IMG/VR virus record: IMGVR_UViG_3300043777_000365
Location: 1 to 64,000 of that record
Direction: 5' to 3' (one strand)
From: a virus
Length of the DNA stretch: 64,000 nt
A program made the position numbers and the translations under genes. Numbering within the stretch: position 1 is the first letter of the stretch; each line of letters starts with the position of its first letter. Below are positions 2,490 through 7,244 of this stretch, piece after piece. The notes beneath the pieces are model-generated. The model did not search any database. It worked only from the letters and a program-made list of their open reading frames with translations, and was not told the DNA's origin.

Positions 2490-3566
2490 TCATGCCTCGC
2501 GCTTGGCCGTCACCGTGAGCTTCATCTGCCCCGAGGGCATCCGGAGCACCTGGAAGACGAGCCGCACCCCGTTCGTCATGTCCAGCCACCCGTGCGGCAG
2601 GTCGTCGAGCTTCTTCGCCGGGACGAAGTCCCCGTGCTTGTCCTTCTTCGGGGCGTAGAGCGGCACCGTCGCCTTCTTCTCGAGCATCGTCGCGATGGCG
2701 AGCGAGTCCTTGGTCGGCTTCACCTCCGGCGCCTTCTTGGAGTTGCCCGCGCCGCCTTTGCCCGTTCGGCCCTTCGCGTCGTTCAGCTCCTTGGTGATCT
2801 GCTGGAGCTTGGCCCGGCTCGCCCCCGCCCGCGCCGCGTCCAGCACCTTGGCCCGGTGCTCCAGCGGGGCCTGCACCACGATGACGAGCCGGTTGATGCC
2901 AAACTCCTCGATGGTCGGCCGGTCGAACTCCCTCGCCGTCTTCAGCATGCGCTCGGCGTACGTGCGCGAGAACTCGAGCTCCTTGTTCGCGAAGTCCGAC
3001 CACGACTGGTAGAGCGGCGTCCCCTTGTCGTCGGTGCGCATCTTCCAGAGGTTCGAGTCGACGATCCTCCGGAACGTCATCGCGATGGCGTACATGCCGC
3101 GCGCCGCGTGGCTCTTGCCCTCGTTGATGACCGCGACCGCCTTGTCGAGCTGCTCCTCCGTCTGGGCCGTGGCCAGCCGCCCGTTGCCCCCCATCGCCTC
3201 GAGCGGGGCCCGCTCCACGTGGGCCATCGCGCGCGAGCTCGGGTCCGGCGGCTCCTCGCTCTCGGTGCCGCCCATCACGCTGCTCGGGGCGGAGCTGTCG
3301 TCGGCGGCCGCCTCCGCTCGGTCGTCGCTGCTCGTCTTCTCCTCCCGGTCCTCGTCCCCGCAGAACGGGCAGCTGCCGAGCTCCGTCGGCCACGGCCCGC
3401 CGCACACCGTGCAGTCGCCGACGTCGCCGTCGCTGTCGTTCAGCTTGGCCTTGAGAGCCTTCACCACCGTGGCGATGGTGCCGCCCGTCGGCACCTTGAA
3501 CTGCTTGGCGCTCCTCAGCACGAGCTTCTGGTCGATCTTCTTCAGGTCCACTCCGTCCGCGATCAT
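2490..3566 (-). CDS. Hypothetical protein with Zn ribbon and putative DNA-binding helical domain
   Basis: CTVC..CPFC; LYQSWSDFANKELEFSRTYAERML resembles phage HTH-like segments; ATGA overlap with the sigma-like gene. Confidence 0.6.
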   Translation of the reverse strand: MIADGVDLKKIDQKLVLRSAKQFKVPTGGTIATVVKALKAKLNDSDGDVGDCTVCGGPWPTELGSCPFCGDEDREEKTSSDDRAEAAADDSSAPSSVMGGTESEEPPDPSSRAMAHVERAPLEAMGGNGRLATAQTEEQLDKAVAVINEGKSHAARGMYAIAMTFRRIVDSNLWKMRTDDKGTPLYQSWSDFANKELEFSRTYAERMLKTAREFDRPTIEEFGINRLVIVVQAPLEHRAKVLDAARAGASRAKLQQITKELNDAKGRTGKGGAGNSKKAPEVKPTKDSLAIATMLEKKATVPLYAPKKDKHGDFVPAKKLDDLPHGWLDMTNGVRLVFQVLRMPSGQMKLTVTAKREA

Positions 3567-4231
3567 GGCGTTGCCTCCCGGGCCAGCCGGCCCAATCCCT
3601 GCTCAACCTCTCGCACGGCCTGCTCCACCGCGCGCACGCTTTGCCTGGGGCTCCTGAGCCCGTGGTCCGCCCGGGCCACCGGGTCGAACCAGAGGTCCAC
3701 CCCGGCCTCGACGACGTCGCCCCCGACGAGCATCCACACCCTCACCGCGTCGCGGTGCAGCGCCGTCGTCGACAGCCCCTCCAGCTGCGCCGCCACCTTG
3801 TCGTGGTCCACGCGCGCCTCCTGCTCCGGCTCCACGCTGGAGAACAGGTCGAACACCTCCGACTCGGAGAGCTCGCCGTCGGCGTTGACCCCGAGCGCCC
3901 CCATCGTGAGCGGGTGCCGGCTCGGCGCCTTGCCGTGCCTGGCCTTCCTTTGGCCGTGGATCCACTTCGCCGCCTTGTTGCACGCCGTCCAGCACACGAA
4001 CGTGGCGAGGGGGGTGCCCCGCGACGGGTCCCACCTGGCGACCCCTTGCCAAGCCCCGATGAGCATCTCCTGCCTCACGTCCTCGTCGCTGACCCCGGCC
4101 GGCAGCTGCCACCGGCCGAACATCTTGCCCGAGAGCCTGTCCCAATCTTCCCGGGTGTCCCTCGCGAACCTCGTGAACGTCGTCTCTTTGTGGTGCAGCG
4201 CGAGCAGCGCCGCCTCCAATCGCTTAGACAT
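3563..4231 (-). CDS. Sigma70-family RNA polymerase sigma factor (clear region 2, divergent region 4)
   Basis: DEDVRQEMLIGAWQGVARWDPSRGTPLATFVCWTACNK matches the sigma70 region 2.2-2.4 pattern EDLxQEGxIGLxxAVxxFDPxRGxxFxTYAxWxI. Confidence 0.8.
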   Translation of the reverse strand: MSKRLEAALLALHHKETTFTRFARDTREDWDRLSGKMFGRWQLPAGVSDEDVRQEMLIGAWQGVARWDPSRGTPLATFVCWTACNKAAKWIHGQRKARHGKAPSRHPLTMGALGVNADGELSESEVFDLFSSVEPEQEARVDHDKVAAQLEGLSTTALHRDAVRVWMLVGGDVVEAGVDLWFDPVARADHGLRSPRQSVRAVEQAVREVEQGLGRLAREATP

Positions 4232-4254: not shown

Positions 4255-5048
4255 CCTCCACCTTCACTCTTGCTCCACCTTCACTCCGATTCGTTTGCCA
4301 TTACGACCCGTCGGCATCGGTGGCGAGGTGCGTGCTGCGTCCCGCCTCCACCTTCACTCCGATTCGTTTGCCATTACGACTCTTTCTGTTCGAATCCCGT
4401 TCGTCCTCCGGTCCTCCGGACTCACCATCCTCCACCTTCACTCCGATTCGTTTGCCATTACGACCCAGGAAGCGCGTGCGGGCCGCCGTGGGCCACGAGC
4501 CTCCACCTTCACTCCGATTCGTTTGCCATTACGACCGAGCAGCTGGTGCGCGAGGTCCGGCAGGCGAGCATCCTCCACCTTCACTCCGATTCGTTTGCCA
4601 TTACGACGCTCGGCGCCGTGGTCGACGCGCTCAAGGTTCTGAACCTCCACCTTCACTCCGATTCGTTTGCCATTACGACCACAAGGATGCGTTCTCGGAG
4701 GCGTACCACTCGTCGCTCCTCCAACTTCACTCCGATTCGTTTGCCATTACGACTTCCGCCGCACCGGGGACCTCCGCCGGCCCCAAGCTCCGCCTCCACC
4801 TTCACTCCGATTCGTTTGCCATTACGACCGAATCCAAGCGTTTCGTCACTTGGGCAAGTGCCCGCCTCCACCTTCACTCCGATTCGTTTGCCATTACGAC
4901 TTCGCGGTGCTCGCTTTGATCAAAGCGAGAGCACACCTCCTCCACCTTCACTCCGATTCGTTTGCCATTACGACCGTTGTCATGCCATCGGGAAGCTGGC
5001 GGGTTGGGGCGTCCTCCACCTTCACTCCGATTCGTTTGCCATTACGAC
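4255..5048 (-). CRISPR. CRISPR array: 11 x 36-bp repeats (GTCGTAATGGCAAACGAATCGGAGTGAAGGTGGAGG on minus strand), 10 spacers of 35-39 nt plus one of 48 nt included, and a truncated terminal repeat
   Basis: Repeats start at 4272, 4345, 4429, 4500, 4572, 4644, 4718 (1 mismatch), 4793, 4865, 4939 and 5013; partial repeat at 4255-4269. The degenerate end is on the left, so the leader is on the right. Confidence 0.98.
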
Positions 5049-5130
5049 CCGTCTCGCCAAAGGCGCAAAACACCGAGCACTTGCGAGGTGGTTCGCGAGC
5101 GGTCGGTTCGCAGGCCCGAGAGGGGAGGCT
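5049..5130 (-). promoter_or_regulatory. Putative CRISPR leader
   Basis: Non-coding, abuts the intact first repeat at 5048, contains two GCGAACC motifs on the minus strand. Confidence 0.5.
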
Positions 5131-5300
5131 CGGTGACGGTGGAGTGAAGGTATCCGGCGAGCCGGATGTCGCGGCAATCCCGAAGGAATCCCGCTTCGCG
5201 AGCGGAGACGGAGCTTATCCCGTCGCCCTCGCGCTCGCGCTGTGGAGTCAGCGCACCTAGCCACCACCGAAGCTCCCCAATCGGACCCGCGAACCATCGC
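5131..5300 (-). ncRNA. Putative tracrRNA (ends approximate)
   Basis: 11-nt anti-repeat at 5141-5151 (ACCTTCACTCC on minus, pairs with repeat GGAGTGAAGGT); hairpin 5237-5254 whose loop ACTCCA can pair with the repeat 3' end TGGAG; further hairpins such as 5152-5167. Confidence 0.7.
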
Positions 5301-5305
5301 CCACC

Positions 5306-5875
5306 TCACGCGTGCGCTTGCGCCGGCTCGTACTTGGCGAGCCGCTTCGCCAACTTCTCGTTCTCCTTCCTGAGCCGGCGCGCCTCCGATTCAAGCTCCT
5401 GCACCCTCGCCCGCAACTGCGACAGCTCGCCTACCTGGCGGATGGCCCCCGTCGACCCGGCTGGGGTCGACAACTCCTTGGCCCACGACTGAACCGTCTT
5501 TTCCGCCGGGGCCACGTTGTGCACTTCGAGGAATGCTCGAGCCTTGGCGGCGAACTGCTCAACGACCCCCTTGGTCGGCTCGTGCATCTTGCCCACCTGC
5601 ATCGTCCAGTGCGCCCCGTTGGCGAGCGCCTGCTCAATGCTGGTGCGCTCCACCCCCCGGGCGAAGTTCGCGTAGCGGTCGAACTCGCACAACTGGTTGC
5701 TCCGCACGAACTGCTCGAACGTCGAGCACCCGGCCTCACGCCACACGTCTTCCGCGTCCTCCTCCGCGCGCAGCAGGAAGGCGAAGAAATCCGCCTCTGC
5801 CCGCTCGCTCTTGAGTCGCAGCGCCTTTGCCGTCTCGACCAGCTCCTCGTACGTCATCTTTTTCTTGGTCACCAT
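5306..5875 (-). CDS. Hypothetical 189-aa protein with C-terminal coiled coil, inside the CRISPR locus
   Basis: Strong RBS GGAGGAGG; WREAGCSTFEQF motif; coiled coil LSQLRARVQELESEARRLRKENEKL. Confidence 0.75.
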   Translation of the reverse strand: MVTKKKMTYEELVETAKALRLKSERAEADFFAFLLRAEEDAEDVWREAGCSTFEQFVRSNQLCEFDRYANFARGVERTSIEQALANGAHWTMQVGKMHEPTKGVVEQFAAKARAFLEVHNVAPAEKTVQSWAKELSTPAGSTGAIRQVGELSQLRARVQELESEARRLRKENEKLAKRLAKYEPAQAHA

Positions 5876-7244
5876 TCGCCTCCTCCTTCGTCGTTACCGA
5901 TCGCAAACTCTCGGCCAGCTTCCGCTCCCGCTCGAACCTCTTCTCCCACGGGCCCATGTCCGCTCCACCCGATTGGAGCATCCACCAAGCGGCCACCCAG
6001 TCGGTCGGCCGCTCGAACACACATACCTTGCAGTGGAAGATGCCGGTTCGAACATTGTGGGCGCCCGCGTCGAGCGCCTTGCACCGGGGGCACTTGCTCG
6101 AGATGTACTCGCTGGGCACCTCGTCGAGACGCTTGCCTGTCTTCTCGAGTGCCGTCGCAACGCACTGCTTGAGTTGATATAGCGGACCGTGGTCGAGCAC
6201 ACGGCGGGTGGCCCGATCGTCCTCGACAATGCCGCCGTAGTCCTCGATGACCACCGACGCGCACCCGAGCTTGTCAGCCTGCGCTACGACGAACGCCGCT
6301 GCTTGCTGGCAGAACGTGTGGGTCACCCTCGCAATCTTGTCCTCGAGAGCGTCGTACGCCTCGTATCGACGCGACCGCCCATGGCCCTTGCTGCCCAACC
6401 CTCGCTCAAACTGTGACGTCCGCTTGATCTCCCGCGCCCTGGCCGAGAGCCGCCGGCGCTGAGCGAGGAGCTTCGAGCCTGGGAAGGCCATCCCTCGCTC
6501 ACCCGTCGACGCGAGCAGATAGAGCGCGTTGCGGGCGCCTCGATGCACGGCGAGCACCCGAGCGGGGTCGACCGGGACAGGTTCCGGACGCGGCTGCTTG
6601 TACGAGACGAGCGCGTACCATTTCCGCCGGCGCTCGTCGTACTGGAGCTTGGCGTCCGTGTACTCCCAAGCTTTGGAGGCCAGCGCGTCGACGACCTTTT
6701 CCTGCGCCCCCCAGCCGCGCATGACGGCGAACCGCACCGAGTTGTGCTTGCGGCCAGGCCTGAGGGTCAGCTCCAGGACGGTCCCTCGCTCGTCTCTGGC
6801 CAGATCGACGCCGGCCTGCCCGACGAGGATCCGCTTGCTGGAGAAGCGGGGGTTCCCTTGATCCCGCCGGCCATAAGCTTGGCATGCGGCGCGGGAGATC
6901 TTGGCCCCCATGTCTCCTGGGACCGAGAGGTCGCCAAACGGCCGGCCCTCTTTTTTCGCCGCCCACTCGCGCAGCTCCTCCACGGCGTGCATGACGGCCG
7001 GGTAGGTGAGCCCGTCCGCGCTGGCCGCCTTCACGGCCGGCGCGTACTCCAAGACCCTCCGGCGCAACGCCTCCGTCCCCACCACGCCCGCGGCCACCCG
7101 AGCCTCGAACGCCGCGTTGAGAAGCTTCGGGGTCGCGGCGGCGAGCTGCCGCAGCAACGGCCCCACCGTCTCCCAAGTGTCTGGAGCCAACGGCTTGACG
7201 ATCTCTAGCCGAACCGCCCGGATCAACACGTCGGCGGTGGTCAT
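5736..7244 (-). CDS. cas12f: Cas12f1-like (type V-F) effector with RuvC-I D-to-H substitution, predicted nuclease-inactive
   Basis: N-terminal RLEIVKPL..W...G..LRQL, KWYALVSY, GHGR..R, VVIED, YISSKCPRC..CKVC and DWVAA all parallel AsCas12f1; LAVHRG replaces GIDLG; adjacent array and anti-repeat. Confidence 0.88.
   Translation of the reverse strand: MTTADVLIRAVRLEIVKPLAPDTWETVGPLLRQLAAATPKLLNAAFEARVAAGVVGTEALRRRVLEYAPAVKAASADGLTYPAVMHAVEELREWAAKKEGRPFGDLSVPGDMGAKISRAACQAYGRRDQGNPRFSSKRILVGQAGVDLARDERGTVLELTLRPGRKHNSVRFAVMRGWGAQEKVVDALASKAWEYTDAKLQYDERRRKWYALVSYKQPRPEPVPVDPARVLAVHRGARNALYLLASTGERGMAFPGSKLLAQRRRLSARAREIKRTSQFERGLGSKGHGRSRRYEAYDALEDKIARVTHTFCQQAAAFVVAQADKLGCASVVIEDYGGIVEDDRATRRVLDHGPLYQLKQCVATALEKTGKRLDEVPSEYISSKCPRCKALDAGAHNVRTGIFHCKVCVFERPTDWVAAWWMLQSGGADMGPWEKRFERERKLAESLRSVTTKEEANGDQEKDDVRGAGRDGKGAATQERAGRGGFLRLPAARGGGRGRRVA

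Follow-up and report, generated by a model that had tools for sequence, protein, structure and literature searches.

Ordinary Cas12f nucleases of type V-F1, AsCas12f among them, destroy their target DNA with a RuvC site built on an Asp-Glu-Asp triad, and where RuvC works with two metals, both ions are bridged by the first Asp. Cas12m2 of type V-M departs from this arrangement with the site His317-Asp485-Asp579, in which the His binds metal A alone, metal B is absent and the pocket, with one Mg bound, holds the non-target strand, and the protein silences its targets without cutting them (PMC10442227). Reverting this site to Asp-Glu-Asp does not restore cleavage (PMC10442227). The dCas12f proteins of Bacteroidota, either linked to sigmaE or to CRISPR, are Cas12f-derived RNA-guided DNA binders with a disabled RuvC domain (PMC13472631). 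Here we describe a CRISPR locus borne by a soil phage in the first 64 kb (the window) of the 86,753-bp virus record IMGVR_UViG_3300043777_000365 from IMG/VR, which has a CheckV completeness estimate of 93%. Its Cas12f1-like effector carries His at the first RuvC position, and we favour, by analogy with Cas12m2, a role in binding DNA over one in cutting it.

Results

An AsCas12f-like effector with His at RuvC-I

The effector open reading frame (ORF) is uninterrupted and translates to 502 aa. Its top phmmer matches among all PDB chain sequences are AsCas12f chains (8j12, 7wju, 8dzj, 8j1j and 8j3r, E ~1e-28), and the alignment to 8j12 pairs 'vlavHrgarn' of the effector with 'imgiDlgvav', placing His234 on the RuvC-I Asp, the position where the D-to-A mutants 8dzj and 7wju carry Ala. 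The other two RuvC segments are paired as well, 'vviEDygg' with 'iqmEDltn' and 'erptDwvaa' with 'eanaDynaa'. The family profile matches AsCas12f over its full length (positions 4-412 of 446 in the profile, E 2.6e-46), and the sole Pfam domain in the effector is the Cas12f1-like TNB zinc finger (PF07282, E 4e-8). An AlphaFold2 (AF2) model, computed with 40 homologues as input, has a mean predicted local distance difference test score (pLDDT) of 84.2, and Foldseek returns AsCas12f 8j12 first (E 1.2e-25) with other Cas12f next and Cas12m2 at rank 24 or beyond. A preliminary description of this DNA had read the triad as H234-E334-D415 with four Cys intact in an unbroken frame; translation, the AsCas12f alignment and an alignment of 40 sequences confirm the residues, the full-length translation confirms the frame, and the range it gave (6000-6545) covers the three codons.

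The last ~37 residues of the effector (466-502) are modelled as a disordered tail with pLDDT <50. Because this tail overlaps the start of the next gene, in a different frame, and is absent from most homologues, the functional effector is probably ~455-465 aa in length. At window positions 5736-5878 the ORF extends ~47 codons beyond the usual stop of its homologues, and Arg/Gly-rich tails resembling it are present in homologues P0002, P0011, P0029 and P0030. The tail may represent either read-through of little consequence or a genuine overlap.

Distribution of the RuvC-I residue

Among 5.8 billion proteins, a word-indexed search found 39 homologues, at 33-80% identity. R235, G236, E334, D415 and the four zinc-finger Cys are invariant across the 40 aligned sequences, and position 234 is His in 39 of the 40 rows, P0040 having Asn; the RuvC-I His stands in a conserved H-R-G motif. 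R399, near the catalytic Arg position, falls within a nearly invariant HN-RT motif. At the level of loci, of which we examined 28 drawn from IMG/VR and JGI metagenomes (L001-L029 without L006; the two collections have some of them in common), RuvC-I is His in 27 and Asp solely in the remote TnpB-like L005.

When a library clustered at 50% identity (1.84 billion representatives) was searched with a profile, 4013 proteins scored E <=1e-3 and 257 scored E <=1e-30. RuvC-I could be aligned by position in 178 of 186 proteins and is His in 132, Arg in 20, Asn in 16, Lys in 2, Leu in 1, Val in 1 and Asp in 6, the Asp rows being the most distant (all <=161 bits) and reading D-L/M-G as in ordinary Cas12f. 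His is one state inside a larger non-Asp clade (N, H, R, K). In a FastTree phylogeny of the 161 full-length rows (25 fragmentary rows left out), rooted by assumption on the six Asp rows, a single branch with 100% local support separates off all 155 non-Asp rows, and Asp is never regained; under that root the deepest groups are Asn-Glu-Asp, and after them come Lys/Asn, Arg and His groups. The pattern would be best explained by a single, ancient loss of the RuvC-I Asp, with Asn, His, Arg or Lys now in its place.

The family is carried on viral or short metagenome contigs. Scanning 185,579 species-representative genomes with motifs of the close subfamily gave three confirmed loci, a lower bound given that seeding, all of them in metagenome-assembled genomes (MAGs; Gemmatimonadales, Methylobacter and a remote Pirellulaceae match). 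The sequencing-run listing names one soil-metagenome DNA run and no RNA run.

Selection on the altered site

Five pairs of loci were informative for the ratio of nonsynonymous to synonymous substitution (dN/dS, Nei-Gojobori), one further pair being saturated and three identical. The values are 0.062 for L017-L019, 0.10 for L017-L018, 0.093 for L018-L019, 0.26 for L004-L029 and 0.20 for L009 and the window, with dS of 0.86-1.33, near saturation. Across 24 distinct loci the His codon is CAC in 13 and CAT in 11, and the following Arg uses six different codons. This synonymous variation at His and Arg, together with dN/dS of 0.06-0.26, shows purifying selection on the amino acids and not decay, and the presence of the same His in independent contigs, encoded by both CAC and CAT, rules out chance or a sequencing error. 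The idea that the effector is a decaying gene, or owes its His to an error in a single codon, has nothing in its favour except the lone substitution, and with a full-length frame, a residue shared with close homologues, loci and the family at large, synonymous codon variation and dN/dS well below 1 all opposing it, we reject it as having a negligible chance of being correct. The preliminary description had taken the gene to be repurposed and not decaying; it proposed an alignment with dN/dS, to see if the His is fixed, as a check and Asp in close homologues as a finding that would count against it. The check favours selection over decay, with His fixed, dN/dS far under 1 and Asp confined to the six most distant rows.

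Within the non-Asp clade the site continues to change. In several branches Arg, Lys, Asn, Leu or Val takes the place of His itself, RuvC-III of the R-type branches then changes to E, H or Q, and RuvC-II is Gly or Asp in some of the H branches. Such drift would be expected of a pocket that does not catalyse. The His-Gly-Asp proteins are a sub-branch in which the RuvC site is further eroded. His at RuvC-I with Gly at RuvC-II is read in L030 (a Gemmatimonadales MAG contig) and L031 (a Methylobacter MAG contig), and likewise in P0051, P0070, P0072, P0073 and P0077. Taken as a series, these stepwise changes look like the 'gradual inactivation' described for V-M (PMC10691335).

A conserved partner gene

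Between the effector and the putative trans-activating CRISPR RNA (tracrRNA) region lies a small gene (Table 1), the first ~140 nt of which overlap the tail of the effector ORF. In 11 other loci tblastn places a match beside the effector, on one side of the array or the other, and a profile built from 12 members (A2) finds exactly one copy beside the effector in five of five viral records. These records include a 298-kb phage whose effector is only ~28% identical and still has the adjacent partner, and a contig with terminal repeats, across whose ends the adjacency runs. A local hmmsearch places the partner next to the effector in 16 of 25 distinct loci; most of the nine partner-less loci end within ~1 kb of the effector, and long flanks are available only in L017/L020 and L026. 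Gene order thus assigns the partner, which the preliminary description had not counted, to the CRISPR system.

The partner family numbers 20 members in a large protein collection, none of them with a name or a Pfam domain, and in the window copy Pfam finds nothing but coiled-coil noise. The AF2 model (pLDDT 86.8) predicts an all-helical N-terminal domain followed by a long C-terminal coiled-coil helix (residues 143-182), and against PDB Foldseek gives no match at E <=1e-3. Its Atlas neighbours carry DUF3102/ParB (at 0.89) and Foldseek weakly places it near the DNA-binding domain of SopB (probability 0.41, E 1.2), which weakly suggests a DNA-binding helix-turn-helix and serves only as a lead.

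Two comparisons concern the history of this gene pair. The nearest relative of the partner is 98% identical (P0187) and that of the effector 80% identical (P0002), and for both the longest contig on record is 97,077 bases, so that one contig probably carries the two; either constraint is uneven or the module has recombined. The effectors of L019 and L017/L020 are 89% identical, and L019 has a partner after its array of 8 repeats, whereas L017/L020 have an array of 4 repeats and no partner despite flanks of several kb, an absence that may be a recent loss.

Table 1. Coordinates of the CRISPR locus and of other features in the window
Feature	Position	Strand	Basis
Cas12f1-like effector gene, 502-aa ORF with its stop	5736..7244	-	ORF and translation, Pfam, AsCas12f alignment, AF2 model/Foldseek
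RuvC-I His234 (CAT on minus strand)	codon 6543-6545	-	Residue numbering
RuvC-II Glu334	codon 6243-6245	-	Residue numbering
CCCC zinc finger, Cys385-Cys408	6021-6092	-	C385, C388, C405, C408
RuvC-III Asp415	codon 6000-6002	-	Residue numbering
Conserved partner gene, 189 aa	5306..5875	-	tblastn, profile A2, AF2 model
Putative tracrRNA/leader region, 257 nt between partner gene and array	5049..5305	-	Folding and anti-repeat
Anti-repeat segments in putative tracrRNA region	~5141-5151 and 5167-5214	-	
CRISPR array, 11 repeats (35-36 nt) and 10 spacers (about 35-48 nt)	4273..5048	-	Repeat family D1, exact coordinates
Degenerate partial repeat at far end of array	~4256-4270		
Sigma70_r2 protein, 222 aa, directly after array	3563..4231	-	Pfam Sigma70_r2, E 1.4e-8
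Palindrome TTGGAAACCCGGGTTTCCAA	11482, 15833, 19938, 21222, 24082, 29553, 32439, 43644, 45050, 54063, 59001, 60656, 61527		

Array, putative tracrRNA and spacers

The array lies downstream of the effector and is transcribed on the same strand. Of the 28 loci, 16 have an array in the flanking sequence retrieved with them, many of the remaining loci being short contigs, and the repeats of related loci share their orientation and a common GGAG-type 3' end. The region preceding the window array is predicted to fold strongly, with a minimum free energy of -145 kcal/mol (z -6.5, 0 of 200 shuffles as stable), and contains a long inverted repeat (5105-5135 / 5265-5295) and an 11-nt complement of the CRISPR repeat. 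The duplex between repeat and upstream region is calculated at -34.2 kcal/mol (z -2.5) for the window locus; of nine loci tested five have an anti-repeat duplex upstream of the array at z <= -2.5, the other four being weak. Rfam matched no family in the window. The claim of the preliminary description that array and tracrRNA are maintained agrees with the 11 repeats, the anti-repeat duplexes and the folding z-score, the tracrRNA being a prediction from sequence.

Neither Cas1 nor any spacer self-target with up to 7 mismatches is found in the 86.7-kb phage record. Compared with 50,697 phage records the window array gives spacer matches at chance level only, the arrays of L003 and L014 have no spacer matches in cultured-phage records, and spacers searched against five family-bearing viral records gave nothing convincing. 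As no spacer target was found, the suggestion that the effector silences rival phages or host defence genes is without support.

Three features of the repeats and palindromes may be recorded here. The spacer at 4381-4429, second from the distal end, is 48-49 nt and thereby ~11 nt longer than the others. Spacer 9 (4901-4939) contains a perfect 20-bp palindrome at 4910-4929, which has 0 exact matches in IMG/VR and could be aimed at a regulatory or terminator sequence repeated in some other element. It is distinct from the phage's own perfect 20-bp palindrome, TTGGAAACCCGGGTTTCCAA, which is present in 18 copies in the 86.7-kb genome, 13 in the window and five beyond.

The sigma neighbour

A Sigma70_r2 gene begins right after the array on the same strand, and as dCas12f-sigmaE systems exist (PMC13472631), effector and sigma factor could together form an RNA-guided transcription activator like those of Bacteroidota. 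We consider this very improbable. No tblastn match to the sigma protein was found in the fetched loci (L001-L029 less L006) and Sigma70_r2 is present in 0 of 4 other viral records carrying the effector family, on which grounds we rejected the sigma link as a family feature; furthermore, the published dCas12f are C-terminally truncated and mostly array-less (PMC13472631), whereas the effector here is intact and has an array. The sigma gene is probably context and not part of the system, as judged from its distribution.

Discussion

We propose that the locus encodes an RNA-guided DNA clamp, drawn from an AsCas12f-like V-F1 system carried by a phage, that binds its target instead of cutting it, and by analogy with Cas12m2 we rate this as somewhat more probable than its converse. 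The effector would be loaded with CRISPR RNAs (crRNAs) from the adjacent 10-spacer array, paired to the tracrRNA putatively encoded just upstream of it, and would then locate complementary DNA flanked by a protospacer adjacent motif (PAM), giving rise to an R-loop. As a His at the first RuvC position should be unable to bridge two metal ions, the effector would most likely grip the displaced strand in a one-metal or metal-free pocket without cutting, in the manner of Cas12m2, and once bound would block transcription or replication of the target. The helical coiled-coil partner (~190 aa) would be part of the module as co-factor or regulator, and because the phage has no cas1, its spacers would come either by inheritance or by acquisition in trans. 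That the effector binds and does not cut is inferred from the Cas12m2 analogy and from the pattern of later substitutions, the stepwise erosion of the site resembling V-M inactivation being the reason that we favour a clamp over an enzyme that is still active.

Such an enzyme is the foremost alternative, in which the His-Glu-Asp site remains a nuclease, acting as a nickase, a slow cutter or with Mn or Zn, and the target DNA is destroyed as by ordinary Cas12f. Other nucleases of the RNase H fold use His as a metal ligand, and E334, D415, the CCCC finger and R399 are all conserved. The usual bridging of both metals by the first Asp speaks against retained cleavage, as does a clade that swaps His for Arg, Lys, Asn, Leu and Val and never regains Asp. 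Specific conserved replacements in TnpB/Cas12 are possibly active according to Altae-Tran et al. (PMC10691335), and yet the sole solved His-first RuvC site, that of Cas12m2, does not cut (PMC10442227). On balance we regard an active nuclease as unlikely, though it is the strongest competitor of the clamp.

Several points weigh against the clamp and should be set beside it. His is able to ligate Mn, Zn or Ni, and the near invariance of Glu-II and Asp-III in the His subclade is compatible with retained chemistry. The root of the tree is assumed, with 62 of 158 inner branches unsupported, many of them deep forks, and the near-saturated dS noted above applies to every informative pair. The tracrRNA is putative, being predicted from sequence and folding; no protospacer was found that would give the type of target or the PAM; and our literature search, in which subscription journals were mostly not covered, found no functional study and no biochemical test of the effector family. 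The authors of the Cas12m2 study tie the loss of metal B partly to the RuvC-II Glu-to-Asp change (PMC10442227), and unlike Cas12m2 the effector retains the RuvC-II Glu. Altae-Tran et al. argue, in addition, that conserved alterations often reflect retained nuclease activity (PMC10691335).

A further possibility is that the altered pocket is retained for work on RNA, e.g. maturation of pre-crRNA, and that DNA is merely bound. In its favour, the acidic RuvC residues are kept; against it, tracrRNA-type systems usually depend on host RNase III for this step. Cas12c and Cas12j mature pre-crRNA in the RuvC site (PMC10442227), but their sites are intact Asp-Glu-Asp, and mutation of Asp485 in Cas12m2 barely affected processing (PMC10442227). 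We hold this explanation to be improbable.

The clamp can be extended to a two-protein model, doubtful at present, in which the effector and a dimeric helical partner would form an RNA-guided silencing module that phages turn on rival mobile elements or on genes of the host. In this model the displaced strand would be clamped by the His-Arg-Gly pocket, the partner would be required for repression, and the mode, as yet uncharacterised among CRISPR systems, would have arisen from Cas12f independently of Cas12m. There is precedent for a required accessory protein in Vap1 of the unrelated phage VIPR systems (bioRxiv 10.64898/2026.10.15.759431).

If binding without cutting is true, the family would show that a natural 'dead' miniature Cas12 with His first in its RuvC pocket had arisen a second time, independently, here on phages and together with a dedicated partner. 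The role of the retained Glu and Asp could then be tested on a natural example. At ~450 aa the effector would also be a very small programmable DNA binder, of use for repression or as a scaffold for base editing, and the family would offer a case study of phages using CRISPR to silence rather than destroy.

Relation to described systems

Four published kinds of viral system were considered and set aside. The VIPR systems have an unrelated protein and repeat type and serve as analogy only; the Cas12p 'hacker' is described as an Asp-Glu-Asp nuclease of another family (bioRxiv 10.1101/2025.01.20.633832); and the accessible text on Myxophage Cas12m (bioRxiv 10.64898/2026.09.14.751636) and on viral Cas14-like proteins from landfill (PMC12607003) describes no His-Glu-Asp Cas12f.

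The closest relative by descent is AsCas12f of type V-F1 (8J12, 7WJU, 8DZJ). Size, domain order, fold, CCCC finger, Glu-II and Asp-III are common to both effectors, and the window locus likewise has a repeat of 35-36 nt, a tracrRNA-type anti-repeat and an array on the same strand. It differs in that the RuvC-I Asp is His and the next hydrophobic residue Arg, and in being phage-borne with a conserved extra partner gene and no adaptation genes. Measured by the features that define V-F1, homology and fold, TNB zinc finger, and array with predicted anti-repeat are all present and the Asp-Glu-Asp triad is not; on homology the family would be a derived branch of V-F1 that falls outside the definition at the triad. 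Bacteroidota dCas12f share the descent from Cas12f, having lost the C-terminal part of RuvC and mostly their arrays (PMC13472631), whereas the present effector has an unbroken RuvC domain, RuvC-III and zinc finger included, its locus retains the array, and sigma is missing from four other viral records carrying the family.

Cas12m2 (8HHL, 8HIO) resembles the effector in having His at the first RuvC position with acidic residues kept. Its triad is His-Asp-Asp against His-Glu-Asp, it uses crRNA only and it is ~600 aa. The family profile matches UnCas12m4a only at E 0.34 and no Cas12m2 chain is among its PDB matches, which, together with the low Foldseek rank of Cas12m2, led us to reject membership in Cas12m. 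Since there is no sequence relation, the Foldseek rank is low and the triads differ, we infer that the likeness is convergent. The account of Cas12m in the preliminary description, a non-canonical His site that binds without cutting, is correct (PMC10442227), and of its proposal that a Cas12f scaffold was convergently exapted as a DNA binder, the part concerning selection stands and convergence is reasonable, while binding itself would follow by analogy.

Finally, subtype V-U24 of Altae-Tran et al. (PNAS 2023) has a RuvC-I active site that departs from the canonical one, as does the effector clade; the paper's one-sentence description, with which alone we could compare, gives no residue, host or function (PMC10691335). 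As this feature matches, and as the conserved partner gene, for which a helix-turn-helix is only a lead, may match the second one described, the family is very probably already catalogued as V-U24, a predicted subtype, and that sentence (PMC10691335) is the sole mention we found in print of this large family, with its 257 representatives at E <=1e-30. The window locus therefore belongs to a known but uncharacterised kind, which by its homology would be a derived branch of V-F1 and which, though not a member of Cas12m, would by analogy work most like it.

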